From positions 3,173 to 35,172 of the forward strand of contig DAIUEN010000001.1 of NCBI GenBank assembly GCA_036845085.1: a stretch of 32,000 bases of DNA. The letters are read 5' to 3'. This stretch comes from Candidatus Nanopusillus sp. (GTDB lineage: Archaea; Nanobdellota; Nanobdellia; Nanobdellales; Nanobdellaceae). Position 1 is the stretch's first letter. The number at the start of each line of letters is the position of its first letter. The position numbers were made by a program, and so were the translations under genes. The notes under the pieces are model-generated. The model saw only the letters and a list, made by a program, of their open reading frames with translations. It was not told the DNA's origin and did not search any database. Below are positions 1-31,740 of the stretch, one piece after another.

Positions 1-686
1 ACTGTAATTTCTTGTCTAGATATCCTTAAGTTCATATTAGGTTTGTCATTTCTTATCATATATACAGAAGCAACTAAGTTTGCTGCAGCATTGGCCCAAC
101 AATTTCCACATATCCCTTGATTTTGAACTGGTGGTAAATAATTTTTTCCATTTACATTACCCCAAAAAAATCTTTTTTGTCCATTGTATTCAAATAAACA
201 TCCTTCTTTATTCATTTGATTATTGTTATTATTTTCGTTATTATTTTCATTGTTACTTTCTTTTTCTTCTGTACTTTCGTTTCCAATTATATTAAATATG
301 TCTACTAGTGGTTGGGGTGTAGAAACGTTAATTATTATGTAAGGTGGATTTATATAAAAGTTTATTTCTTTTCCTTCTTTATTAATTAAGGAAACATTTT
401 CTGGCAATATAATTGAGAAATTTTTACCATAATACTCAAAAATTAGACTATTATTTTCTTTATATACTAATACACCTTCTGGAATATTTAATAATATAAT
501 ATAGTTGTACGGAAAGGAATACATTGCATATACCAAATCTTGTAAGTTGTTTAAATAATTTTGAAATAAAATATATTCTTGTTGTTTTTTTGTATTATAA
601 CTATATGAAAAATATATCATTAAAGCCAATCCAACAATTAATAATAATATACCAACGTTTAATATATTTAATTGAGATCTATTCAT
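1..686 (-). CDS. Partial CDS (3' end beyond window): N-terminal pilin-like/TM anchor, unknown domain, Asn/Glu-rich linker, then start of a papain-family (C1) cysteine peptidase domain
   Basis: Manual translation of the minus strand from ATG at 686..684, with no stop to position 1: MNRSQLNILNVGILLLIVGLALMIYF...SNNENNNENNNNNQMNKEGCLFEYNGQKRFFWGNVNGKNYLPPVQNQGICGNCWANAAANLVASVYMIRND. QGICGNCWA matches the C1 active-site signature Q-G-x-C-G-S-C-W-A (catalytic Cys codon 99..101). Absent from the ORF track because it is truncated. Lies 24 nt downstream of, and co-oriented with, the 711..1169 gene. Confidence 0.7.
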   Translation of the reverse strand, partial: MNRSQLNILNVGILLLIVGLALMIYFSYSYNTKKQQEYILFQNYLNNLQDLVYAMYSFPYNYIILLNIPEGVLVYKENNSLIFEYYGKNFSIILPENVSLINKEGKEINFYINPPYIIINVSTPQPLVDIFNIIGNESTEEKESNNENNNENNNNNQMNKEGCLFEYNGQKRFFWGNVNGKNYLPPVQNQGICGNCWANAAANLVASVYMIRNDKPNMNLRISRQEIT

Positions 687-710
687 AATGAAAATATAAT
701 TAAAAAGTTT

Positions 711-1169
711 TTAAGTCTTTATGGGTAATAACGTTATTGTCACCGTATCTGGTTTTGTTTTTTCAATCAATAGGTTTAGTATTTGATAATCTTTTCCATA
801 AAAAGCGTAATAATATGTTCCGTTTTTATAGTATTTTAATGTTTTATCTTCAGAGTTTATTTCTATTTTACAAGTAGACTTGTATGTATGATTTTTGTTA
901 TAATTTCCATAATTTATAGAACATATCAATTCATAGTCTCTAGATAAAACAAAATTCAAATATTTATATGCATAAAAGTCATAATATATTTTAGTTTCGT
1001 TAATAGAATAGCAAACTCTTTCTATATATTTATATAATATTTGACATTGATTTATTTGTTCATATAAATTCTTAGTTTGGGTATTTATATTTAGAAATTT
1101 ATAATATAGTCCTAAAGATATTGCAAATATGGCAATTCCAATACCTATCCAAAGCCATTTATCCATCAT
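711..1169 (-). CDS. Small membrane-anchored/secreted protein, possible minor pilin-like subunit
   Basis: 152-aa ORF. N-terminal hydrophobic helix MMDKWLWIGIGIAIFAISLGLYY, 4 Cys, N-x-S/T sequons (NET, NHT, NGT). ATGA overlap with the upstream gene at 1166-1169. No recognisable family. Confidence 0.55.
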   Translation of the reverse strand: MMDKWLWIGIGIAIFAISLGLYYKFLNINTQTKNLYEQINQCQILYKYIERVCYSINETKIYYDFYAYKYLNFVLSRDYELICSINYGNYNKNHTYKSTCKIEINSEDKTLKYYKNGTYYYAFYGKDYQILNLLIEKTKPDTVTITLLPIKT

Positions 1170-1573
1170 TGTAATTCTAATTCAATATATTGACCATTAT
1201 ATTTGATTATAACAAAACTTTCATCTTTTATTGTAAATGTACATCTTTTCATTACTACATCTGGATTATAGCTTTTTACAAGGTCTAACAATTCATCGCA
1301 GTTTATATCTTCTCCTTTATATTGTACAACATAACAAGTACCAATCTTTTTTTGATTATAGCATGAAATAATATTTAGGGCTAATGTATTTGGATTATCT
1401 ACATTTCTTTGTACATTTACATCGGCAGTATTATTTTTATTAAACATTGTGTCTATATAACTAGAAGCATTTGTTTTAAATTTTACTATTAAACCGATTA
1501 GCGTTGCTGTTACAATTAGTCCCATAATTATTAAAAAAGTATATTTTATAGGATCTTGACTTTTCATTGCCAT
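1166..1573 (-). CDS. Small pilin-like protein with putative class III signal peptide
   Basis: 135-aa ORF with N-terminus MAMKSQDPIKYTFLIIMGLIVTATLIGLIV (K-S then Q, followed by a ~20-aa hydrophobic helix) and 4 Cys. Starting at Met3 (1567) would give an ATGA overlap with the upstream stop, like the other junctions in this operon. Confidence 0.55.
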   Translation of the reverse strand: MAMKSQDPIKYTFLIIMGLIVTATLIGLIVKFKTNASSYIDTMFNKNNTADVNVQRNVDNPNTLALNIISCYNQKKIGTCYVVQYKGEDINCDELLDLVKSYNPDVVMKRCTFTIKDESFVIIKYNGQYIELELQ

Positions 1574-2049
1574 AATATTATTTTACTTTCATTGTATATT
1601 ATAAATATACTTCTCATTGGATAAAATTCATTGCTATTATTTGAGGAATAAAAGTCTAATCTATCAGGATTAAATTGAGAATACTTATTTACATATTCTT
1701 TTATTTCGTTAAAGTTTATTATTGTATCACTATTGCTTATATAAAAGTCATAACACAATGAAAATAATAAATCTGAACCGTAATATTTGTTATAGCAACT
1801 AACAATTAAACCAGTTATAATCTTTAGTATTTCATCTTTATTGGAGGAATTTATTTTTATTTTTTCTGTATTTGGATAATAATCTTTACATTCTGGAGAA
1901 AATGCTTTTTGGGTGGCTAGCTGACTACAATAATAGTTTTGAGATTTACTTAAGAATAAAGTATAAATCATATATATTAATGTTGCAATTGAAAATAATG
2001 CTATTATTAGTATAAATATTTGATCAATAGTTAAATCACTTCTTTTCAT
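1564..2049 (-). CDS. Small pilin-like protein with putative class III signal peptide
   Basis: 161-aa ORF with N-terminus MKRSDLTIDQIFILIIALFSIATLIYMIYTLF (KRS then D, followed by a hydrophobic helix). 4 Cys, sequons (NSS, NNS, NES). ATGA overlap at 2046-2049. Confidence 0.55.
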   Translation of the reverse strand: MKRSDLTIDQIFILIIALFSIATLIYMIYTLFLSKSQNYYCSQLATQKAFSPECKDYYPNTEKIKINSSNKDEILKIITGLIVSCYNKYYGSDLLFSLCYDFYISNSDTIINFNEIKEYVNKYSQFNPDRLDFYSSNNSNEFYPMRSIFIIYNESKIILWQ

Positions 2050-2330
2050 TTGTAAGTAATATTACCTTGATATATATAAATTATTCTGTATCCTTCTGGT
2101 ATTTCAATTCCATTTATAGTACAATTACCCCTAAGATAACCTTTTTTTTGAACGACTCTATAATAACTTTCATTATAATATCTATATATATCAATACAAG
2201 TTATAATAGATTCTTCTTTTTCTTCTGTTAAATTCTTAATTTTACTCAGATAATAGAAAGAAAATATAGCTCCTATTAATATTAATATAAAGGATAAAGT
2301 GATCCAGTAATAGTTATATTGATTTTTCAT
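2046..2330 (-). CDS. Small membrane-anchored protein, possible minor pilin-like subunit
   Basis: 94-aa ORF. N-terminal hydrophobic helix YWITLSFILILIGAIFSFYYL, 2 Cys, sequons (NLT, NES, NCT, NIT). ATGA overlap with the platform gene at 2327-2330. Confidence 0.5.
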   Translation of the reverse strand: MKNQYNYYWITLSFILILIGAIFSFYYLSKIKNLTEEKEESIITCIDIYRYYNESYYRVVQKKGYLRGNCTINGIEIPEGYRIIYIYQGNITYK

Positions 2331-4297
2331 ATTTGGAAAGACGTTGGTATATATGGGCCAAATATTGTATTTACGGCTATTAAACCAAGAGTGGAAAATA
2401 TTACATAGAATATTGTACCAACTATTAAGTTTCTTCCTATATAATAATATATCATTGTTTCATCGAATCCGTATTTAATACCTGCTGTGAAAAAAGAGGT
2501 TATTATTACAAATTCTATGAAAAATATACCAATTATTGCTTGGAAATATGATGGGGGAATTAAATTAGCTAAATTAAATGTTGAAATTATTAATTGAGAT
2601 AAATCTGCAGCCCCCGATAGACCAAAAGCTGCGCTAATGGTCTGGAAAAAATACGCTATTGCAAATAGCATAGATATTATTGCACTATTAAATATTGTTA
2701 CTAAAGAAGACATAAATGGTACTATACTTTTTGATACATTATCTAATAACCCTATAACTTCATCTAACATTCTTCTTACCTGAATTCTTATATCTACAAC
2801 TTGCTCTAAATTCTTAGATACGTTATAACATATTTGAGATAAAACTTTAGGTCCTTTATTTGTGGAATATATAATTAGCTGTAATGTTTCATAAATAATT
2901 TTGGAAGGATAATAATTAATAGATCCATAATTTTTGTCGAATATTGATTGTATTAGATTTAATCCTTTCCTTAAATTAAATATTGTGAGCTTTAAAAAAT
3001 TTTCTAATATTCCTGAAAGTTTTATAATCTTATAATTTTGATATGTTTTTTCTAATACTATTTCCATTGGATATCCATCTTCTAATAATGATGCAAACTC
3101 GTATACTATAACAGGGAATTCAAATTCCATTTCTTCTATTTCATTAGCTCTTTTAACCTTTTGGAAGGAATTTAAATAAAAATAAGATCCTATAGATAAT
3201 CCAATACCTAATGGTAGAGTTAGCATTATTAATGCATTTATTACAGATCTATCTTGAAAAATAAAGTTAAGATAAGTGGATAGAGCTCCTTCTGGAATAT
3301 AAAGTAATTTTATTGATATTTGTGCTAAATGATATATTGCAGGAATTGATAATGTAGCAAATAATATTATGAAAGGAAAGATTGATACTTCTTTATTTCC
3401 AATTTTAACTCTATTCTTTTTTGGTAAGTCTTTAGCTAATGAGAGATCTGGAGTTGAAAATGCGAATGGATTTTGAGATAATAAATTTTGTATAACTAAA
3501 AAAGTTAATATTGGTAAGATAATTATATATCCAAATGCTATAAAGTAAAAACTAACATTATTTAAAAGGAATACCGACATTATTGGTAGCATAAGTATAC
3601 TAACAATTGGCAAAACAATTAAAAAAGAAGTTATAGCAACAGCAGGCTGTTTTAGTTTTTCTACATATTCATACGATTTTTGGTAAGCTTTTTTTAGTAT
3701 CCAAGATAATAATCTATCTAATAGCGCATTTATTTCTTCCTCAGTTCTTCTATATTTTATATTTAATAAGTGAGACATTATATATACAAAATCTGGTGAT
3801 AAATAGAACCATCTTATTGCATAATATTCTAAAGCTTCTTCTAATATTCTAAATCTTTTGTTTTCTAAATCATATAATAATTTTTTAAAATCTGTTGCTA
3901 TGATACCTTTCATATAATATGCTACGTATTGTATTGCTTTTTCTAAATTTGGATTTCTCTTTAAATATAAAACTAAGTATAAAGTAACCCACACAGATTC
4001 TGAAGTTGCAGCAATTTTTACTATTTTTGTATAAAATATGGGAAAATATGCTAAATAAAAATCTATGATTAATAATGCAATTAGTAAAGAAAAAGCAAAT
4101 TGAAAAGAAATAAGTGATAATATAAAATATAATATAAAAGATAATATTAATAGAAATAAAACTGATGAAAAAATATTTGTAGAAGTAGTTTCTAGTTTAT
4201 TTAACCATAAATTAAAATTATAAATTTTTTTAAGTTTTCCGGGAGGGTCTATTTTAAATAAAGAAAAAGTATTATAAAAAAATTCAAAAAAATTCAT
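2327..4297 (-). CDS. Polytopic membrane platform protein of the type IV pilus/archaellum family (FlaJ/ArlJ/TadC-like, two T2SS-F domains)
   Basis: 656 aa with many TM segments and two soluble helical regions resembling T2SS-F domains: NLEKAIQYVAYYMKGIIATDFKKLLYDLENKRFRILEEALEYYAIRW...EKLKQPAVAITSFLIVLPIV and YPMEIVLEKTYQNYK...LRKGLNLIQSIF...KGPKVLSQICYNVSKNLEQVVDIRIQVRRMLDEV. Surrounded by pilin-like genes. Assignment is by pattern recognition, not a search. Confidence 0.65.
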   Translation of the reverse strand: MNFFEFFYNTFSLFKIDPPGKLKKIYNFNLWLNKLETTSTNIFSSVLFLLILSFILYFILSLISFQFAFSLLIALLIIDFYLAYFPIFYTKIVKIAATSESVWVTLYLVLYLKRNPNLEKAIQYVAYYMKGIIATDFKKLLYDLENKRFRILEEALEYYAIRWFYLSPDFVYIMSHLLNIKYRRTEEEINALLDRLLSWILKKAYQKSYEYVEKLKQPAVAITSFLIVLPIVSILMLPIMSVFLLNNVSFYFIAFGYIIILPILTFLVIQNLLSQNPFAFSTPDLSLAKDLPKKNRVKIGNKEVSIFPFIILFATLSIPAIYHLAQISIKLLYIPEGALSTYLNFIFQDRSVINALIMLTLPLGIGLSIGSYFYLNSFQKVKRANEIEEMEFEFPVIVYEFASLLEDGYPMEIVLEKTYQNYKIIKLSGILENFLKLTIFNLRKGLNLIQSIFDKNYGSINYYPSKIIYETLQLIIYSTNKGPKVLSQICYNVSKNLEQVVDIRIQVRRMLDEVIGLLDNVSKSIVPFMSSLVTIFNSAIISMLFAIAYFFQTISAAFGLSGAADLSQLIISTFNLANLIPPSYFQAIIGIFFIEFVIITSFFTAGIKYGFDETMIYYYIGRNLIVGTIFYVIFSTLGLIAVNTIFGPYIPTSFQI

Positions 4298-4306
4298 TAT
4301 CTAAAT

Positions 4307-5086
4307 TTACGAAGTTCTTTTTGCACCACCAGAATAAGAATTTAATATATGTTCTGGAATATGAGTTAATACATCACATAGAGGCAGAATATTTACATCC
4401 CCAGTAAATCCTAATTCTTTACATTCTCCACTTGCTTCTACATTTAGACTTCTTGTTTCGTCATCTATGACTATATTGAATTCTACTCCGTCACATTTTG
4501 TTGTACTATAATAGTTTAGTACGTTCTTAATTGCTTTAAATATTTGATTTTCTATCCAAGTAGGTATTCTACCACCACATGATCTTTGAGGTCCAGGATT
4601 TAATATTTTTGAAGGATTTGAGAATGAAATAGATATAGAATTTTCTCCAAATTCTATATTAGAATATTGACCAAATACTTCTTTTGTAGCTTTATCTGGA
4701 TCAAAATTTAAATCAAATATATAGTATTTACACATTATTTGCATACAGTAAACTGGAGTCAAAGAATATCCTTTATAAGAACAGGCTGTATCTCTTCCAT
4801 ATTGTTGCATTACAACAGAACATGGTACAGAATCTGCACAAACGTAATAACCACTTGTTAGCTCTGTAAATCCTCTTCCAATTGCTACATATCTTTGACA
4901 AAATTCTACTGGACTGTTACATACTTCAGAACATGTAGAAACAGCTTGTTGTATTTCTGTATTAGCTATAGTACCTACTTTTGAGGCTTGCTGTGAAAAC
5001 ATTCTTAATGCAATTACTACTATTACTAACATTACAATTATTATAAATACTAATTGTATAGCCATGTCTAATGCTCTTTTCCTCAT
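4307..5086 (-). CDS. Cys-rich type IV pilin-like protein (putative class III signal peptide), first gene of the operon
   Basis: 259 aa with N-terminus MRKRALDMAIQLVFIIIVMLVIVVIALRMF. The R-A then L junction followed by a ~22-aa hydrophobic helix fits the archaeal prepilin peptidase motif [KR][GA][LIFQ]. 12 Cys in the mature part. Confidence 0.6.
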   Translation of the reverse strand: MRKRALDMAIQLVFIIIVMLVIVVIALRMFSQQASKVGTIANTEIQQAVSTCSEVCNSPVEFCQRYVAIGRGFTELTSGYYVCADSVPCSVVMQQYGRDTACSYKGYSLTPVYCMQIMCKYYIFDLNFDPDKATKEVFGQYSNIEFGENSISISFSNPSKILNPGPQRSCGGRIPTWIENQIFKAIKNVLNYYSTTKCDGVEFNIVIDDETRSLNVEASGECKELGFTGDVNILPLCDVLTHIPEHILNSYSGGAKRTS

Positions 5087-5140: not shown

Positions 5141-5548
5141 TTAATATCTTATTATAAAAGAAAATTCTTTTTCTTCTCTTATTTTTTCAATTACTTTTCT
5201 TTCTATATCAATAGCTGATTTTTCTGAATTGATTGCTATAGTTCTACTATCTATGTAAGTGCTTTTTCTTATTACAATACTATTTTTATCTGAAAAAATT
5301 AAATTTTTATGGCCGTATGCGTAAAATTTGTCTATAATGTCGTCAACTTTTATTATTATTTCTATTTTGTTTCCATTTAGTAAATATTCTTTTAAATCAT
5401 TTGGTAAATCACTTGCAGAATGGGAGGCCTTTATTCCTATTATACAGTCTCCTCTTTTTGTTAAATAGTTGTCTTTAGTAATTTCTAAGGTAGATTTGTG
5501 TGTTGCTCTTATATTTTTATGTCCATAAACCTTAATTACGAATTCCAT
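5141..5548 (-). CDS. DUF371 family protein
   Basis: 135 aa. VYGHKNIRATHKSTLEITKDNYLTKRGDCIIGIKA matches the conserved GH-x-N-I-x-A-T-H-x-T-T-x-E-x-T...RGDCIIG pattern of archaeal DUF371 proteins. Overlaps the upstream ATP-grasp gene by 17 nt. Confidence 0.6.
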   Translation of the reverse strand: MEFVIKVYGHKNIRATHKSTLEITKDNYLTKRGDCIIGIKASHSASDLPNDLKEYLLNGNKIEIIIKVDDIIDKFYAYGHKNLIFSDKNSIVIRKSTYIDSRTIAINSEKSAIDIERKVIEKIREEKEFSFIIRY

Positions 5549-6401
5549 TTAAATATTTCAATATATCTCTCATTACATTTTTACCAACATATTTTTCAAA
5601 ACCTTCAAATTGAAATATGTGATGTATGTCTATTACATAATACTCATTATCTTTTATTAATATGTCGAAGGCAAATATTTGTAAATCAAGTTTTTCAGAG
5701 ATTTTATAACATATTTCTTTTAATTCTTCATTTAGTTCAAATGGTTTTCCATATCCGCCCTGGCTTATATTAGCTTTAAATGTTCCTTGATTTATTCTTT
5801 GCATACCCCCATATGGTTCCCCTATGAATATTATTCTTACATCTTTTTCATATGGTATATATTTCTGGAAAATTAAAAATGGAAGCTTTCTTATATTTTC
5901 TGGATTATTCATGAAGAAATCTTTTAATTCTTCTCTATTATTAATTAAATATACAAATTCTCCTCTATGTCTTAGAGAATGTTTTATTACTAATGGATAA
6001 CCAATATATTTTTCTATAAGATGTAAATTATTCATAGAATATATCTTGATAAATTTTGGTATATTTACAATTTTATTAACGCTATCATACATCAAAGTTT
6101 TATCTATTAGTCTGTACTTTTTATATATGCCATTTATTATGATTTTTCCATTTTCATCTAAATATTTCGCTAAAAAATTTGTATCATATTTTGTTGATGC
6201 GCCTACAAAAAAATAGTAGATATCATCTTTAAGTATATCTTCGTTAAAAGGATATGTTATTCTAGATTTTAATTCTATTATTTTTATATTTTTGAAGTTT
6301 GCTATTTCTTCCTTTAATCTTCTAATTCTATAATCTCCATCATAATAACTTCCAATTAAAATTGTAATATTTGCCATAATTTTTATAGAAAAATTAGTCA
6401 T
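5532..6401 (-). CDS. ATP-grasp ligase, RimK/LysX/MptN-like
   Basis: 289 aa. GYPLVIKHSLRHRGEFVYLINNREEL, DVRIIFIGEPYGGMQR, FKANISQGGYGKPFEL and FAFDILIKDNEYYVIDIHH follow the RimK-type ATP-grasp layout. The start may instead be Met9 (6377), which leaves room for the divergent promoters. Confidence 0.6.
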   Translation of the reverse strand: MTNFSIKIMANITILIGSYYDGDYRIRRLKEEIANFKNIKIIELKSRITYPFNEDILKDDIYYFFVGASTKYDTNFLAKYLDENGKIIINGIYKKYRLIDKTLMYDSVNKIVNIPKFIKIYSMNNLHLIEKYIGYPLVIKHSLRHRGEFVYLINNREELKDFFMNNPENIRKLPFLIFQKYIPYEKDVRIIFIGEPYGGMQRINQGTFKANISQGGYGKPFELNEELKEICYKISEKLDLQIFAFDILIKDNEYYVIDIHHIFQFEGFEKYVGKNVMRDILKYLNGIRN

Positions 6402-14648: not shown

Positions 14649-15464
14649 ATGGTCTTTAGCGATACTATCATGGCCTTTGTGTATTATTTTGGATTTTTGG
14701 TAGTATCATTAGTAGTAGCATTGATAGTAGGATTTGTAGCATATAGAGTATTAGATAGAGTATTAGATAGATTAATAGAACCATACTATAATAAGTTTTA
14801 TGAAGAATTAGGAACAAAGAGACCAGTAGATTTTTCAACAACGGTATCTGTAATATTAAGTGTATTATTTGGAGTATTGTCTTTTACTTGGGCATTTAAC
14901 AATTTAATGAGTATAGTATCTTTAGATTATTATACGATATTGACTCCATATATTGAAGTAACTTTAGCTGCAGCTGCTACAATATTTGGAGTTACTGGAG
15001 TAATATTTCTAATATTTGTAGGTACATTCTTTGCACTATTCTTTAGCTGGTACATATATAGGATGGTTTCTCCATATAGAGAAGATGTAGCATCACTACT
15101 AAGATTATTGCTATTCATAGGTTTAGTATATGTTGTTTCTGTATCTTCATTAAGTGCATTAAACCTTGATGATGCAGAAATATTTGGATACATATTGGGA
15201 GCATTTGTAGTATTGTCAATAGGATGGGCAATTATAGAATTTGTTATGGAAAAAGTATCGAATACAAAGTCATTTGAAGAAATAAAACCATTCTTAGAAT
15301 ATTTCCTATTTGGAATCTTTATACTTTCAGCTTTATCCGTTTTAACCTTAGGATATAATGCAATTTCACAATCAACAATAAATATATTTGCCTGGGCCTT
15401 TGTTTTGATATTAGTAATAGCATTGGTACCTTTTGTTATAAAGGCAATAAAATCTATATATTAG
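14649..15464 (+). CDS. Polytopic integral membrane protein of unknown function, inserted between rps12 and rps7
   Basis: 271 aa with about 6 hydrophobic segments and no family motif recognised. Flanked by AT-rich promoter-like and T-run sequences. Confidence 0.6.
   Translation: MVFSDTIMAFVYYFGFLVVSLVVALIVGFVAYRVLDRVLDRLIEPYYNKFYEELGTKRPVDFSTTVSVILSVLFGVLSFTWAFNNLMSIVSLDYYTILTPYIEVTLAAAATIFGVTGVIFLIFVGTFFALFFSWYIYRMVSPYREDVASLLRLLLFIGLVYVVSVSSLSALNLDDAEIFGYILGAFVVLSIGWAIIEFVMEKVSNTKSFEEIKPFLEYFLFGIFILSALSVLTLGYNAISQSTINIFAWAFVLILVIALVPFVIKAIKSIY
14745..14768 (+). repeat. Perfect 12-bp tandem duplication inside the membrane-protein gene
   Basis: AGAGTATTAGAT occurs twice in tandem (14745-14756 and 14757-14768), encoding RVLD-RVLD. 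Confidence 0.9.
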
Positions 15465-16112: not shown

Positions 16113-16943
16113 TTATTCAAATACTTTTTTGTATATATCTTTTAGTTGTGTTGGGACAACATGAGTATATACCTGTGTAATACTCAATGATGAGTGACCC
16201 AATAATTCTTGTATAAATCTAATATCAACACCTTTTGACAGTAAAGTTGTAGCTAAAGAATGTCTAAGAACGTGTGGAGTTACTTTTTTATTTATACCAG
16301 CTTTAATGGTAGCGTTTTTTATTATTCTTTCTACTTGTCTAGTTGATAGCGGAAATATTCTATCACTATTAGTTTCTTTAATATATTCTCTTAATTCATT
16401 TAATAGAAAGCTTGGTATTGGAACAATTCTTTCTTTTCCACCTTTTCCATATATCTTTACAAAACCATCAGTCCAGATTATATCACTCTTTTTTATATTG
16501 ACTAATTCGCTTACTCGGACTCCGGTATAAAATAAAAACTTTATAATTAATCTATCTCTTTTATTATCTACAGCTTCTAATAATCTATTAAATTCTTCTA
16601 AAGTTATAAATTTAGGCAATTTTTTATCAACTTTTGGTGCTTTTATTTGTTTTGCTAATTGCTCATTATCTAAAAATTTTAAAAAAGAAGATATAGCTCT
16701 GACGTATAATCTTAAAGAATTATAATCTAGGTTTTTGTTTACTTTTATATTTGCAAGAAATTTGAATATCAAATTTCTGTTCATATATGTTTGTAATACG
16801 TACATATCTATTTCGTTTGCTTTTAGCTCATTTTTTAGGAAATCTAAAAGCTTTTTTATTACAATAGAATATGTTTTTATTGTATTTTTTGATTTACCCT
16901 GAAGTTCTAACCATACTTTGTATTGATCTAAGATATTATCCAT
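16113..16943 (-). CDS. xerA: Tyrosine recombinase, XerA/XerC/XerD-like
   Basis: TGVRVSEL, HVLRHSLATTLL and LLGHSSLSITQVYTHV supply the R...HxxR...H...Y catalytic set, and the N-terminal SAM-like domain is YKVWLELQGKSKNTIKTYS. The ORF extends to 17012, but Met24 (16943) fits family length and leaves a TATA-like AAAAATATAAATATT upstream. Confidence 0.85.
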   Translation of the reverse strand: MDNILDQYKVWLELQGKSKNTIKTYSIVIKKLLDFLKNELKANEIDMYVLQTYMNRNLIFKFLANIKVNKNLDYNSLRLYVRAISSFLKFLDNEQLAKQIKAPKVDKKLPKFITLEEFNRLLEAVDNKRDRLIIKFLFYTGVRVSELVNIKKSDIIWTDGFVKIYGKGGKERIVPIPSFLLNELREYIKETNSDRIFPLSTRQVERIIKNATIKAGINKKVTPHVLRHSLATTLLSKGVDIRFIQELLGHSSLSITQVYTHVVPTQLKDIYKKVFE

Positions 16944-16998
16944 TGTTATAATGGAATACTTTAGAATATTTATATTTTTCTCTAAATAGAATATATTA

Positions 16999-17051
16999 TC
17001 CCCACATGCCATGCACTAGGGATAATATGAACTAGTTCCTCCATGTGGGGA
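16999..17051. repeat. GC-rich inverted repeat (10-bp stem, 33-nt loop) spanning the stop codon of the nucleotidyltransferase gene
   Basis: TCCCCACATG (16999-17008) pairs perfectly with CATGTGGGGA (17042-17051). An inner ACTAG/CTAGT pairing is possible (17015-17019 with 17032-17036). The region is visibly GC-richer than its surroundings. Confidence 0.85.
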
Positions 17052-17714
17052 ACAAAAATGAAGATGTTGGCTTGAAGCTGAAGAGTGATGAATACGGCTA
17101 CTCAGATAATTAAATAACCCGCAAATATATTCTTTAGCAGTTTTAGCATGTTTTTTATATTTATTAGAATATTTTTCAAATATGTTTGATAATAATTCTT
17201 CATTAATTCCATGTTTCATTGCTAAAGTAAGTAATGTAAATACATCCATCAGATCTTTTTCTTCTTTTCTATTTAAATATGTAAATATTTTATCAACTAA
17301 TAGCCATTCTAATCTAGCAACCCTCACTTTGATTTTTCTTTTTCCAATTTTTATTTCTAAGTCTTCGTATGGTATTTCTTCATTACTAAATAATATACTT
17401 ACTTTAGGACCATTTTCGTAAATTATTTCTATACCATCTTTTCCAAAAATTTTACGTTCTATTATTTTCTTTATGTCATTAATTCTATATACTATAGATT
17501 TAATATATATTATATCTTTTTCTTTTGCCAATAAGTCAATATCCTCTGTTTTTCTATATTTTATAACATCAAGTCCTGCATCTATTAAATATACCGCTAC
17601 AGCCATTCCGCCCATTAGTATTGGTTTTTTATCATCATCAAATGACTTTAATATATCATCTAAGACTTTTATAGTTCTAGCTTCTGTTAGCGAATAAGTA
17701 TATTTATTTGGCAT
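17016..17714 (-). CDS. Nucleotidyltransferase-fold protein (AbiEii/DUF2204-like)
   Basis: MGGMAVAVYL...RKTEDIDLL fits the G-G/S...D-x-D minimal NTase motif. VARLEWLLVDKIFTYLNRKEEKDLMDVFTLL resembles the C-terminal R/K-D...D motif of AbiEii-type proteins. The last ~30 aa (SSRIHHSSASSQHLHFCSPHGGTSSYYP) are compositionally atypical and overlap the GC-rich element. Confidence 0.5.
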   Translation of the reverse strand: MPNKYTYSLTEARTIKVLDDILKSFDDDKKPILMGGMAVAVYLIDAGLDVIKYRKTEDIDLLAKEKDIIYIKSIVYRINDIKKIIERKIFGKDGIEIIYENGPKVSILFSNEEIPYEDLEIKIGKRKIKVRVARLEWLLVDKIFTYLNRKEEKDLMDVFTLLTLAMKHGINEELLSNIFEKYSNKYKKHAKTAKEYICGLFNYLSSRIHHSSASSQHLHFCSPHGGTSSYYP

Positions 17715-29758: not shown

Positions 29759-31084
29759 ATGAATATTATAACAGTTTTTTCTTACATAACTTTGGTAATA
29801 ATATTTATACAGCTACTAATTTCTATGTATACATTAATATTTATTTTAAATTATAAAAAGAAAATAGAAGATATAGAAATCAAGGAATATCCAAGGGTTT
29901 CTATAATAGTTCCAGCATATAATGAAGAAGATAATATATCTGATACGTTAGAAAGATTGTCTGAACTAAATTATCCAAAAGATAAATTGGAAATAATTGT
30001 AGTAGATGACGGATCTAAGGATAATACATATAATATAGCTAAAGAATTTGAAAGGAAATATAATTTCATTAAAGTATTCAGAAAAGAAAATGGTGGAAAA
30101 GCTTCAGCATTGAATTATGGGATAAAGAAAAGCACTGGAGAATATATAGTAACTTTAGATGCAGATTCTTATCCAAAGAAAGATGTCCTAATAGAAATGA
30201 TAAAATATTTTTATATAGATCCGGATGTTTCAATTGTAGTACCATCTATACAGACAAAAGATGTAGATACAATTATAAGGAAATATCAATATGTAGACTA
30301 TGCTATATACAATTTTTCTAGGTTAGTATTAGATCAGCTAGATTCTATATATATAGTACCAGGTCCATTTTCTATATTTAAGAGAGAAGTATTTGAAAAA
30401 ATAGGATATTTTGATGAAAAAAATATTACTGAAGATATGGAAATTGCTTTAAGGGCTAGAGCACATAATTTGAAAATAAAGTATTGTCCAAATGCAATTG
30501 TTTATACTATTACTCCAAAGACCTTTAAATCTTTATTCAAACAAAGAGTTAGATGGTATTTAGGATTTATAGATAATTATTTAAATTATAGAAATAAAAT
30601 AAAAAATGAATTTTTATCTGAAGTTGCTTTGGGAATTGCAATTTTATTGAAAATTATAATACCAGTTGCTTTAGTTGTAGCTGTATATGCGTCTATTTAT
30701 AATTTCTACCAGCATTTTATGTTTTTATATGTATCAAATTTCGATTTATATACCATATATGTAAAATCTTTTATGCTTTCTGATTTTTCCAAATTTATAG
30801 AAGATATTAGATTTACTATTATTAGGCAATTTTATCTTTTTTTATTTACTTTCTTAATGTTTTCTATGTTTTTGTTGTTTATTTTAATATATAGAAGGTA
30901 TGAAAAAGACCATAAATTTTCCAATGTTTTACTTTATATATTTATCTATTTACTATTTTCTTTATATCTTAATGGAATATTTATTTTATCTTCACTATAT
31001 TATAAAATATTTGGATCTGAATTAAGATGGGGTGGAATTACCTGGAGAAATAGTCTTATAAATAGATTAAGAAATATTACATGA
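29759..31084 (+). CDS. Membrane-embedded processive family-2 glycosyltransferase (PgaC/IcaA/NodC/cellulose-synthase-like)
   Basis: 441 aa. N-terminal TM, then VSIIVPAYNEE, VVDDGSKD, GGKASALNYG, TLDADS, ITEDMEIA and QRVRWYLG (the D, D, D, QxxRW signature), followed by about 4 C-terminal TM helices. Confidence 0.85.
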   Translation: MNIITVFSYITLVIIFIQLLISMYTLIFILNYKKKIEDIEIKEYPRVSIIVPAYNEEDNISDTLERLSELNYPKDKLEIIVVDDGSKDNTYNIAKEFERKYNFIKVFRKENGGKASALNYGIKKSTGEYIVTLDADSYPKKDVLIEMIKYFYIDPDVSIVVPSIQTKDVDTIIRKYQYVDYAIYNFSRLVLDQLDSIYIVPGPFSIFKREVFEKIGYFDEKNITEDMEIALRARAHNLKIKYCPNAIVYTITPKTFKSLFKQRVRWYLGFIDNYLNYRNKIKNEFLSEVALGIAILLKIIIPVALVVAVYASIYNFYQHFMFLYVSNFDLYTIYVKSFMLSDFSKFIEDIRFTIIRQFYLFLFTFLMFSMFLLFILIYRRYEKDHKFSNVLLYIFIYLLFSLYLNGIFILSSLYYKIFGSELRWGGITWRNSLINRLRNIT

Positions 31085-31740
31085 TGGATAATAGATCTAT
31101 AATAAAATTAGCAGTAATACTTTCTGTTTTATCCTTTTCCCTTGGAGTTATGATAGGATATTCTATATATAATCATATATTAAATAAAGTATTTGAAGAT
31201 ACAAATCAAATAGATTCTTTAGTAACTTCAGCATATTTATTTTCTTTATCTAAAAATATGACGTGTGAAAAAGAATATGAAGATTTTTTAAGATATTTAA
31301 AAGAAAAAATCGCAATAGTTGGTAGGAAATTGACATATTTAGAAAGCCCAGAAAATGTATTTTATAATAAAGAAGGTGTTGAACATATAAAATCACAATA
31401 CTTTAATATACAGTATCTTCATTTTATTATGATGAATAATTATATTAAATCTTGTAACGTATCCAATTTTACTTTAATATTATATTTTTATAATAATGAT
31501 TATTGTTATGAAGAATGTAATAAACAAGGAGGAGTTTTAACAACATTATATTTGAGACATTATTATGATTTATACATATATTCTTTTGATAGTTCATATC
31601 AGAATTATTTTATACAATATTACAATGAAAAATATAATATTACAACATGGCCTTACATTATATTAATTAAGTCTGATAAAGAATATCTATTTAAAGGATT
31701 CACAGATTTAGAAACATTAGAAAAATATATGACTACTTGA
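31081..31740 (+). CDS. Membrane-anchored protein with possible thioredoxin-like domain (CYEEC motif)
   Basis: 219 aa. N-terminal TM (IIKLAVILSVLSFSLGVMIGYSIY). The C-terminal part reads FTLILYFYNNDYCYEECNKQGG...TTWPYIILIKSDKEYLFKGFTDLETLEKYM, which resembles a strand / C-x-x-x-C helix ... x-P strand ... helix Trx layout. ATGA overlap with the GT2 gene. Confidence 0.45.
   Translation: MMDNRSIIKLAVILSVLSFSLGVMIGYSIYNHILNKVFEDTNQIDSLVTSAYLFSLSKNMTCEKEYEDFLRYLKEKIAIVGRKLTYLESPENVFYNKEGVEHIKSQYFNIQYLHFIMMNNYIKSCNVSNFTLILYFYNNDYCYEECNKQGGVLTTLYLRHYYDLYIYSFDSSYQNYFIQYYNEKYNITTWPYIILIKSDKEYLFKGFTDLETLEKYMTT

Follow-up and report, generated by a model that had tools for sequence, protein, structure and literature searches.

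The left edge of the window (the whole stretch of DNA analysed, 32,000 nucleotides) cuts a genuine gene of a Nanopusillaceae nanoarchaeon, which encodes a cysteine peptidase of the papain family (C1). We lean, with modest confidence, towards the view that its product is a modular cysteine protease, pilin-like and tethered at the cell surface, which forms part of a degenerate apparatus of the pilus type. A structural subunit would have acquired an enzyme, and the apparatus would thereby display a protease at the cell surface. Nanobdellota live obligately as ectosymbionts or parasites on Sulfolobales-type hosts and breach the host S-layer via an attachment organelle. A tethered protease encoded in a pilus-like cluster is a testable candidate for a tool that acts on a cell envelope.

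A C1 peptidase gene is cut by the window edge

The peptidase gene lies on the minus strand at 1..686, where the window holds codons 1-228 of 436. Translation of the minus strand from the ATG at 686 to base 1 gave 228 codons with zero stops and exactly reproduced the peptides quoted in the earlier note, which had described an uninterrupted gene here. At the composition of the window (26.7% G+C), 228 stop-free codons would arise by chance with a probability of 3.9e-9, and 50 shuffles of the entire window yielded no open frame longer than 145 codons. The gene is indeed missing from the ORF list, for the sole reason that the program omits frames running off the end of the source. The contig Ga0212125_1014359 (L001) is 100% identical to window positions 1-1550 and carries the peptidase frame to a stop codon. 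With this leftward extension the gene was completed with an intact frame and with both the His and the Asn catalytic blocks. The full-length protein (P0001) has 436 aa; its last 208 codons and the stop fall outside the window, to the left.

The encoded protein has a complete papain-like catalytic domain

The catalytic domain begins within the window at residues 163-228 (1..200, minus strand), as delimited by Pfam, PDB sequence matches and invariant columns. The oxyanion-hole Gln190 (117-119) and the nucleophile Cys196 (99-101) are found within QGICGNCW, at the coordinates first given for them. The window fragment alone matched PF00112 with 27.9 bits (gathering score 20.7; E 3e-6; residues 182-227), and the full protein matched it with 88.7 bits (E 7.6e-25) over profile positions 12-201 of 220. 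His352 is located in GGHAVLLVGF, and Asn380 and Trp382 in WIIQNSWG. Gln190, Cys196, His352, Asn380 and Trp382 were invariant in 4 aligned orthologues with 38-40% identity to the window protein, and the catalytic motifs are also present in the peptidases of Nanobdella aerobiophila and strain YN1. The C1 active-site block proposed from the fragment was thus borne out by the profile scores above the gathering score and by the full catalytic set. As a best explanation, the gene would encode a catalytically competent papain-family (C1) cysteine peptidase.

Sequence matches in the PDB included dipeptidyl peptidase I, cathepsins K, L and H, falcipain and papain, and they covered the whole C1A mature domain, starting at about residue 173, immediately past the linker. 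Like the papain family (PF00112, MEROPS C1A), the nanoarchaeal protein has the full mature domain and the Gln-Cys-His-Asn-Trp set in QGxCGxCW, GHA and NSWG. It differs from the solved C1A enzymes in its low identity to them (best E 2e-11) and in a 28-residue Cys-containing insertion between His and Asn. Many Cys residues and a C-terminal N-V-T sequon are conserved in the orthologue alignment, the sequon being invariant; as compared with C1A enzymes, the several conserved Cys would be consistent with disulfides. In C1A zymogens (though not in all C1 enzymes) an inhibitory I29 propeptide is typical; here its place is taken by a membrane helix, the 135-aa module and a tether of low complexity. 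No I29 propeptide was detected in the full protein by Pfam, nor any other significant domain at E <= 0.1, and the only extra signal was a faint Ost5 match below threshold. Since the propeptide is missing, regulation must come from elsewhere.

The earlier note regarded C1 peptidases as uncommon in archaea. This was contradicted by a single pattern scan, which found them in Altiarchaeales, Methanospirillum, Methanothrix, Methanoregula, Thermoplasmatales and Bathyarchaeota. The nearest C1 genes outside the family showed 22-30% identity and came from mixed anaerobic bacteria and archaea, and no horizontal acquisition could be shown from them.

We also considered whether the gene is a degenerate or inactive relic, that is, a pseudo-protease serving as a binding module, or an annotation artefact of the contig edge. 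The window does truncate the gene, and a word-index homologue search with the 228-aa fragment as query gave no match, the full-length query being needed. However, the frame reaches its stop on the identical contig, the catalytic residues are all invariant across genera, and two cultured strains with closed genomes carry the gene. A relic is scarcely credible, and the pseudogene or inactive reading was rejected on the intact frame and the invariant catalytic residues.

The N-terminus is pilin-like in topology

Residues 1-26 (609..686, minus strand) start with the basic tip MNR, which is followed by the conserved motif x-Q-[LI]-N-x-L and then by some 20 residues of hydrophobic helix, as judged from hydropathy and nine orthologue N-termini. 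The consensus was M-[NKR]-[RK]-x-Q-[LI]-N-x-L, followed by a hydrophobic stretch at 11-26. Q5 was invariant in alignment A4, and N7 and L9 were invariant in alignment A3 only. With its short basic leader directly before about 20 hydrophobic residues, the peptidase has the general layout of a pilin N-terminus. This layout implies a predicted N-in/C-out membrane anchor, because the hydrophobic stretch comes after basic residues and is not followed by a site of the signal-peptidase-I type. The many conserved Cys and the invariant N-V-T sequon near the C-terminus likewise point to an outward orientation. A simple Sec signal that is cleaved off, the alternative that had been raised for this N-terminus, does not fit, since small residues at -3/-1 are missing behind the hydrophobic stretch and the helix is predicted to continue to residue 56.

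In a class III signal, Gly (or Ala and, in rare cases, Ser) occupies position -1 relative to the cut made by the prepilin peptidase, with Lys or Arg before it. In the nine orthologue N-termini, the residue preceding the conserved Gln was S, L, N, N, Y, V, N, N and D; Gly or Ala was absent from the prepilin cleavage position of the peptidase in all nine. The peptidase thus lacks the canonical cleavage motif of the class III signal that had been considered for it. What stood of the original description as pilin-like were the basic tip, the helix and the conserved N-domain, and what fell away was the cleavage residue, Gly or Ala. A conserved Gln at +1 is reminiscent of EppA substrates (PMC4390842), which we take as a lead only.

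The N-module spans residues 1-135 (282..686, minus strand), as defined by the AF2 secondary structure and by stand-alone homologues. In the AF2 model it forms a helix at 3-56 and then six short beta-strands at 62-121, and with a pLDDT of 54-82 it is the best-scoring part of a model that was built on a four-sequence alignment and reached an overall pLDDT of 47. A Foldseek search of the peptidase model against the PDB returned no pilin, only ribosomal L6-like fragments with E > 0.03, which we treated as noise and did not count on either side of the pilin-fold question. The N-module profile gave no match in a sequence search of the PDB. The N-terminal 9 residues and the entire 135-aa module are conserved among orthologues at 30-37% overall identity.

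The module is followed by a low-complexity Asn/Glu linker at residues 136-162 (201..281, minus strand; alignment A3 columns ~135-190; pLDDT 25-40), for which the previously given 196-262 was approximate. Orthologues have poly-Asn, poly-Gly or Pro/Ser linkers at the equivalent place; the length varies and the linker is always present. Both the N-domain and the low-complexity linker ahead of the protease, as first described, were therefore seen, and the helix and the ~135-aa domain are conserved. These results suggest that the peptidase N-terminus is pilin-like in topology, and we base its possible status as a pilin on topology and gene context only.

The peptidase gene belongs to a conserved pilus-type cluster

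The peptidase gene sits in the middle of a cluster of about 12 co-directional genes. It had been taken for the last gene of an operon, but five more co-directional genes lie downstream in every genome examined. The cluster order is syntenic in Nanopusillus MAGs, in the cultured N. aerobiophila MJ1 and in strain YN1, and its chromosomal position in all of these is constant, beside rpoH/rpoB, RimK and DUF371. Only the platform protein of the cluster was seen in Nanobsidianus stetteri. Gene ends overlap by 4-10 bases according to the ORF coordinates, which suggests possible translational coupling.

Nine cluster proteins have a single N-terminal helix by hydropathy. Three of the small genes (1166..2330, minus strand; identified from ORFs, hydropathy and conserved order) encode products of 135, 161 and 94 aa, each with a short basic N-terminus and one hydrophobic helix, and their order is kept in loci L003, L004, L006, L013 and L092. 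When the small cluster proteins were compared all-vs-all with hhalign, probabilities stayed below 50% and concerned mainly the N-helix, and hhalign against the canonical pilins of a related DPANN locus (L008) gave probabilities < 10%. This weak N-helix similarity falls short of showing that the small subunits would descend from bona fide pilins.

The 656-aa polytopic membrane protein (2327..4297, minus strand) was characterised using AF2, Foldseek, Pfam and homologue neighbourhoods. Its AF2 model had a pLDDT of 86. The only high-probability Foldseek matches were the EpsF cytoplasmic domain (prob 0.99, TM 0.63) and a PilC model (prob 0.84), with poor E-values. PF00482 was the top family in 5/18 homologues, always below threshold (best 21.9 bits vs 25.2). 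All three distant homologues (3/3) adjoin PF00437 ATPases, and 2 of those loci also contain PF01478, the A24 prepilin peptidase family. The N. aerobiophila orthologue bears the submitter name 'type II secretion system protein'. An NCBIfam search and a PDB sequence search with the platform-protein profile gave no meaningful match. These results point to a very diverged T2SSF/FlaJ/TadC/PilC-type platform protein, by homology that is remote but consistent. An archaellum FlaJ was rejected as its identity, as YN1 has a separate FlaBDEHIJF set (PMC11420986).

The first gene of the cluster encodes a 259-aa Cys-rich protein (4307..5086, minus strand), delimited from its ORF, orthologue sequences and alignment A5. 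Its N-terminus, M-[RK]-[KR]-R-[AG]-[LI]-D-M-A-x-Q-L followed by a hydrophobic helix, contains a canonical-looking [KR][GA] class III (prepilin) signal, in contrast to the peptidase, which has none. A PDB sequence search with its profile gave no meaningful match. We regard it as the best candidate in the cluster for a true pilin. The pilus-like neighbourhood noticed at the outset is thus supported by the remote platform homology of the 656-aa gene and the canonical class III motif of the 259-aa gene.

Neither a T2SSE ATPase (PF00437) nor an A24 peptidase was found in the cluster or the 32-kb window, or within +/-10 kb of the cluster in the complete YN1 and N. aerobiophila genomes. Our literature search found no description of the cluster or of a nanoarchaeal C1 peptidase. 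The cluster is best read as a conserved, lineage-specific, degenerate pilus-type apparatus.

The downstream neighbour of the peptidase gene always encodes the same secreted, C-terminally anchored Cys-rich protein. This constant adjacency would suit a maturation or remodelling protease, one that trims or activates the Cys-rich secreted products of neighbouring genes (e.g. DUF333-like) or opens the cell's own S-layer for the apparatus. The absence of an I29 propeptide and the local replacement of the YN1 S-layer by the attachment cone (PMC11420986) also speak for such a role. However, the DUF333 similarity of the neighbour was below threshold in every orthologue and was not used as evidence. C1 enzymes are mostly broad-specificity endo- or exopeptidases, and this breadth sits poorly with a dedicated trimming role. 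We consider a maturation protease quite improbable.

The protease head is exchanged between cluster modules

In strain YN1, the N-module is a stand-alone 141-aa gene, YN1_4400. The window N-module showed 40% identity (E 3e-24) to L006:15785-16207. Representatives of the stand-alone form, which is 141-142 aa in size, are P0029 and P0031, the latter metagenomic. Upstream of the peptidase gene, the window encodes a 152-aa protein with an N-terminal helix (711..1169, minus strand), which was assessed by comparison with its YN1 orthologue and the L006 gene table. The orthologue of this ORF is the N-terminal 142 residues of the YN1 C1 peptidase YN1_4420 (37% identity, E 4e-27). In addition to this module and the catalytic domain, the YN1 peptidase has an extra domain and a Pro/Ser linker, PSPSPPPSPSPSPGPSPGPSPLPPP. 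Because the N-module occurs as a stand-alone gene both in YN1 and in a metagenome, it can be regarded as an independent unit, and sequence comparison shows the protease head attached to two different cluster modules.

These results bear on whether the protein is a plain signal-anchored ectoprotease, with a type II anchor, which scavenges amino acids from extracellular or host proteins for an auxotrophic symbiont and has no role in a filament, although its gene lies in one operon with those of envelope proteins. The missing Gly/Ala cleavage residue agrees with this, as do the lack of an ATPase or A24 peptidase in cis and of any pilin among the Foldseek matches of the peptidase model. YN1 and its relatives also lack most biosynthetic capacity and depend on their hosts (PMC11420986). 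On the other hand, 9 conserved N-terminal residues and a conserved 135-aa module, which also exists as a separate gene, are needless for a mere anchor. A plain ectoprotease also does not account for the swapping of the catalytic domain between two cluster modules, or for the fixed position of the gene in a cluster that opens with a pilin and a platform protein. We therefore regard it as possible but rather unlikely, and prefer a modular pilin-like subunit because the N-module belongs to a set of subunits in a pilus-type cluster.

In the preferred reading, the peptidase would be held in the cytoplasmic membrane by its N-terminal helix, uncleaved or unconventionally processed, with its N-terminus inside, and a flexible low-complexity tether would hold the protease head outside the cell. 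The initial ~135 residues would make up a small pilin-shaped module, consisting of a long N-terminal helix and a beta-sheet head. The N-module may be one of several such subunits that are incorporated into, or dock on, a filament around the diverged platform protein and the class III-signal pilin. The protease would presumably cut host envelope or surface proteins, or remodel the symbiont S-layer where the apparatus emerges.

Comparison with known surface systems

The attachment organelle of Nanobdellota consists of a cone, a portal and a 6.6-8.2 nm intercellular filament (PMC11420986, PMC11104419, bioRxiv 10.64898/2026.06.04.730037). The same organisms, N. aerobiophila and YN1, carry the cluster. 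The filament diameter is within the type IV filament range, and the filament displaces the host S-layer, a job that a tethered protease would suit. No protein component of the organelle has been assigned so far, and its tie to the cluster is a hypothesis only. The cluster might encode the extracellular part of the organelle, that is, the intercellular filament and/or the portal. This part would then be assembled by a degenerate type-IV-filament machine in which the subunits no longer carry the canonical prepilin cleavage site, and the C1 peptidase, grafted onto one subunit or another, would locally digest the host S-layer so that the filament reaches the host membrane. We consider this proposal distinctly unlikely as it stands. 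The platform protein, the pilin, the pilin-shaped subunits and the tethered protease nonetheless make a concrete short list of attachment candidates, and the idea is experimentally testable since the cluster is present in two cultured strains with closed genomes (N. aerobiophila MJ1 and YN1).

Makarova et al. (2016) reported no A24 peptidase in two nanoarchaea and could not identify the cognate pilins for one nanoarchaeal ATPase clade (PMC4858521). The cluster may account for these 'missing pilins' of nanoarchaeal secretion ATPases. It also resembles the archaeal TFF subsystems in that report in being a locus with several small pilin-like accessory proteins. Sulfolobus builds sugar-binding proteins that bear class III signals into an assembly on a type-IV-filament base (Sivabalasarma & Albers 2026 preprint, bioRxiv 10.64898/2026.04.22.720090). 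This bindosome, with its BasEF base, is similar in that functional non-filament proteins have pilin-type N-termini and depend on a platform. However, the bindosome has canonical PibD sites and an ATPase beside the platform gene, whereas the Nanopusillaceae cluster has no ATPase or peptidase of the prepilin type in cis. The Nanopusillaceae platform protein also escapes all curated profiles, unlike its counterparts in the bindosome and the archaeal TFF systems.

Modular pilins with grafted functional modules are widespread in bacteria, where one peptidase module was found among 264 architectures (Raynaud et al. 2021, PMC8179133). As in Streptococcus sanguinis PilB and PilC, an N-terminal pilin-type module carries a grafted function in the nanoarchaeal protein, and the gene likewise lies inside a filament-machinery locus. 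In the bacterial proteins the class III signal is canonical, with Gly at its end, and the IPR012902 motif is present, whereas the nanoarchaeal peptidase lacks the cleavage residue. The nanoarchaeal case further differs in coming from an archaeon and in that the grafted module is a C1 peptidase. The occurrence of one protease head on two anchor modules provides a clean natural example in archaea of grafting a function onto a pilin.

The C1 Peptidase Gene Is Complete

The uninterrupted minus-strand frame that the earlier note had read from the ATG at position 686 was reproduced, together with the peptides quoted from it. Translation of the window gave 228 stop-free codons down to base 1, and a stop is expected about every 12 codons at the window's 26.7% G+C. 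The chance of such a run at this composition is ~4e-9, and no frame stayed open for more than 145 codons when the entire window was shuffled 50 times. The gene (window 1-686, minus strand) had rightly been described as missed by the ORF track, which omits it only because ORFs running off the source are not reported. The codons of the oxyanion-hole Gln (Gln190, 117-119) and the catalytic Cys (Cys196, 99-101) lay exactly where they had been placed. Even by itself, the fragment exceeded the gathering score of Pfam Peptidase_C1 (27.9 bits; threshold 20.7). Looking up the ORF at 711-1169 led to a public JGI contig (Ga0212125_1014359, L001), which matches window 1-1550 at 100% identity and extends beyond the window's left edge. 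This contig completes the gene to 436 codons, and the extension supplied the two catalytic blocks that the earlier note had proposed to look for, GGHAVLLVGF (His) and WIIQNSWG (Asn). The full protein matched PF00112 at E 7.6e-25 (profile positions 12-201 of 220), and an identical 436-aa protein (P0001) is also recorded from a 35-kb contig.

Residues ~173-396 matched dipeptidyl peptidase I, cathepsins K/L/H, falcipains and papain among PDB sequences (best E 2e-11). Word-index search returned only three homologues, 33-35% identical by BLAST over 89-95% of the length, one of them annotated 'C1 family peptidase [Nanopusillaceae archaeon]'. Gln190, Cys196, His352, Asn380 and Trp382 were invariant in the alignment with these three, as were many Cys residues and a C-terminal N-V-T sequon. 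The mature-domain alignment starts right after the linker, and an I29 propeptide is absent. Judged by its sequence, the protein is a family C1 member in every feature but this propeptide, which is not universal. A reading of the peptidase as inactive or as an artefact was contradicted by the data. The window's protein is the shortest member (436 aa versus 489-579) and alone lacks a Cys-rich insertion of 40-60 residues after the NSWG block (columns ~445-495 of the orthologue alignment A3), which is carried by P0002-P0004 and the orthologues at loci L092 and L006 (strain YN1).

An exhaustive profile search across 1.84 billion representatives yielded 7143 C1 relatives; the complete architecture of N-module (residues 1-135) plus protease was confined to four representatives. 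Three matches (141, 142 and 66 aa), from Nanopusillus and strain YN1, consist of the N-module alone. When 185,579 species genomes were scanned, full-length matches were restricted to Nanopusillus/Nanopusillaceae, and the next-best matches covered the catalytic domain only, at 22-30% identity. These came from Altiarchaeales, Methanospirillum, Methanothrix, Methanoregula, Thermoplasmatales and Bathyarchaeota, and from Dehalococcoidia and sulfate-reducing and syntrophic bacteria. Contrary to what the earlier note had supposed, C1 peptidases are thus no particular rarity among archaea, and a donor lineage cannot be named.

The N-Module Is Pilin-like in Layout and Swapped between Genomes

The first 26 residues run from a basic tip through the motif x-Q-[LI]-N-x-L into a hydrophobic stretch of ~20 residues. 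Since no small -3/-1 signal-peptidase-I site was found after this stretch, the N-terminus is not a plain cleavable Sec signal, the outcome that the earlier note had held against its own reading. The AF2 model, built on a four-sequence alignment (overall pLDDT 47), scored best in a single helix at residues 3-56 followed by six short strands at 62-121 (pLDDT 54-82), the order of secondary structure described for type IV pilins (PMC8179133). A Foldseek search with this model returned only noise, and the N-module profile had no match among PDB sequences. The residue ahead of the conserved Gln in nine orthologues was S, L, N, N, Y, V, N, N and D, never the Gly/Ala that defines a prepilin peptidase site. 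The N-terminus is pilin-like in layout, but it lacks the canonical class III cleavage motif. The methanococcal pilin peptidase EppA needs a conserved +1 Gln (PMC4390842), a likeness we take only as a lead. Because the protein fails one defining sequence test of a pilin, the -1 residue, and a pilin fold is only putative, we liken its working to that of a modular pilin (PMC8179133) or of a bindosome-type class III-anchored protein (bioRxiv 10.64898/2026.04.22.720090) and do not class it as a type IV pilin. The Asn/Glu low-complexity linker described earlier was recovered at residues 136-162 (pLDDT 25-40). In orthologues this position is taken by poly-Asn, poly-Gly or Pro/Ser tracts that vary in length.

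In the cultured strain YN1, which has a closed genome, the orthologous catalytic domain (39% identity, E 4e-59) lies within the 579-aa YN1_4420. The first 142 residues of YN1_4420 are orthologous to the product of the window's separate 152-aa gene (711-1169, minus strand; 37% identity, E 4e-27) and are followed by an extra Ser/Thr-rich domain and a Pro/Ser linker. The N-module of the window peptidase is found in YN1 as the stand-alone 141-aa gene YN1_4400 (40% identity over residues 3-114, E 3e-24). Nanobdella aerobiophila MJ1 has the same fusion as the window. The protease head has thus been grafted via a tether onto two different small subunits of one cluster, a sign that the role of these subunits goes beyond membrane anchoring.

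A Conserved Cluster Surrounds the Peptidase

The peptidase lies mid-cluster, in a co-directional order shared by Nanopusillaceae MAGs and N. aerobiophila: RimK-like ATP-grasp, DUF371, products of 230-259, 656, 86-94, 156-161, 135-139 and 140-152 aa, the C1 peptidase, and products of 249-298, 510-543, ~400 (polytopic), 409-474 and 214-216 aa. YN1 keeps this order save for module swaps and extra genes after the protease. With further co-directional genes behind it in all of these, the peptidase is, contrary to the earlier note, not the last gene of the operon. The cluster adjoins rpoH/rpoB, and gene ends in the window overlap by 4-10 bases or leave gaps of 9-24 bases. Nine products have a single N-terminal hydrophobic helix behind a short basic tip, and Cys and N-x-S/T sequons are abundant in most. 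The first gene (259 aa, window 4307-5086, minus strand) begins M-[RK]-[KR]-R-[AG]-[LI]-D-M-A-x-Q-L, which looks like a canonical class III signal. A DUF371 gene and a RimK-type ATP-grasp gene (5141-6401, minus strand) lie ahead of the cluster on the same strand in all genomes examined, including two closed ones; this may reflect a functional link or synteny alone.

Directly downstream of the peptidase in every genome is a gene for a Cys-rich secreted protein with the start NP[IM]AVYCEYGGG and a C-terminal membrane helix; its match to DUF333 was sub-threshold (best 23.1 bits against 25). It is located at L001:2185-2700, just past the window's left edge, at L003:8626-9522, L013:6110-6943 and L092:15104-15961 in other loci with the cluster, and in two YN1 copies (L006:14937-15788 and L006:16223-16741). 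Since the two genes are always neighbours, the product may be a partner of the protease, its substrate or its inhibitor. The ~400-aa product, encoded outside the window (L004:7709-8920, L005:4059-5264, L013:8565-9776, L006:18264-19466), adds another polytopic component to the cluster, with 10-12 membrane helices by prediction and the conserved motifs HTRY, G[IM]HY, GE[LF]LE and IHG; it had no Pfam or NCBIfam match.

The 656-aa Protein Is a Diverged Platform Protein

The 656-aa protein (2327-4297, minus strand), whose orthologues are 56-65% identical, had no match in Pfam, NCBIfam or PDB sequences. Its AF2 model, from 18 homologues, was confident (pLDDT 86). Foldseek against the PDB gave nothing at E 0.001; the only two high-probability matches were the cytoplasmic domain of EpsF from type II secretion (prob 0.99; TM 0.63 across all 115 residues of the target) and the chain for PilC in a type IVa pilus machine model (prob 0.84). 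When the 18 homologues were scanned singly, PF00482 (T2SSF) was the commonest family, with five matches that were all sub-threshold (best 21.9 bits against 25.2) and spanned the entire profile in either protein half. Genomic context was decisive. Of the distant homologues, three were examined (19-25% identity, E 1e-24 to 1e-54), and each directly adjoins a PF00437 secretion ATPase. A PF01478 prepilin peptidase closes two of these loci, and one of the two, examined in detail, abounds in small ORFs whose N-termini show the canonical [KR]-G. In N. aerobiophila, the submitters gave the orthologue the name 'type II secretion system protein'. We conclude that the 656-aa protein is a strongly diverged type-IV-filament platform protein. 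Identity with archaellum FlaJ was rejected, as YN1 encodes FlaJ elsewhere (PMC11420986).

Two distant DPANN loci, L008:6452-20566 and L090:5650-15269, are complete, canonical type-IV-filament loci. Each encodes a T2SSE ATPase of 762-766 aa, a platform protein of 720-742 aa that Pfam does not detect, an A24 peptidase, two 54-56-aa Flp-like pilins and several larger small-ORF products, which at L008, the locus examined for this, have [KR]-G N-termini. Curated profile libraries seem to lack the entire platform family.

Neither an ATPase nor an A24 peptidase was found in the cluster or among the housekeeping genes that fill the remainder of the window, nor within 10 kb in the closed genomes of YN1 and N. 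aerobiophila. This fits Makarova et al. 2016 (PMC4858521), who stated that nanoarchaea have secretion ATPases without identifiable pilins and that no A24 peptidase could be recognised in two of them. The observation of the earlier note was borne out and extended, and its interpretation is supported in part. The main rival is a common ectoprotease with a signal anchor that scavenges nutrients and has no more than an envelope operon in common with its neighbours. We regard it as rather unlikely: the missing Gly/Ala and ATPase speak for it, and an N-module that is conserved, exists independently and is swapped between genomes speaks against it. Less likely still is a protease for maturation or remodelling of the cluster's own secreted proteins or the symbiont's own S-layer. 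On balance, the peptidase is probably a subunit of modular, pilin-like build in a surface apparatus that derives, in degenerate form, from a type IV filament, and it would display an active enzyme outside the cell. Its N-terminal helix would anchor it N-in/C-out and the flexible tether would hold the peptidase outside, where the subunit might be incorporated into a filament or dock onto one.

Possible Relation to the Attachment Organelle

A literature search found no paper mentioning the cluster or a nanoarchaeal C1 peptidase. We describe here a pilin-like, modular protease together with the pilus-derived, lineage-specific cluster to which its gene belongs. N. aerobiophila, YN1 and YN4 have an attachment organelle whose 6.6-8.2 nm filament displaces the host S-layer and reaches the host membrane (PMC11420986; PMC11104419; bioRxiv 10.64898/2026.06.04.730037). 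The cluster, with its pilus-type platform, pilin, many pilin-shaped subunits and tethered protease, is conserved in at least two of these organisms. It is a distinctly unlikely idea, directly testable in two cultured symbiont-host systems, that the cluster encodes the filament or portal of this organelle and that the protease cuts the S-layer.

Elsewhere in the window, at 16113-17714 (minus strand), genes for a tyrosine recombinase (PF00589, E 4e-42) and for a nucleotidyltransferase toxin of the AbiEii type (PF08843) sit between the ribosomal S7 gene and the L10/L1/L11 operon; the recombinase could be the housekeeping Xer enzyme beside a toxin gene, or the pair a small remnant of integrated DNA. 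Two plus-strand ORFs, at 14649-15464 (271 aa) and 31081-31740 (219 aa), had no Pfam match at E <= 0.001 and lie amid otherwise well-annotated housekeeping genes.
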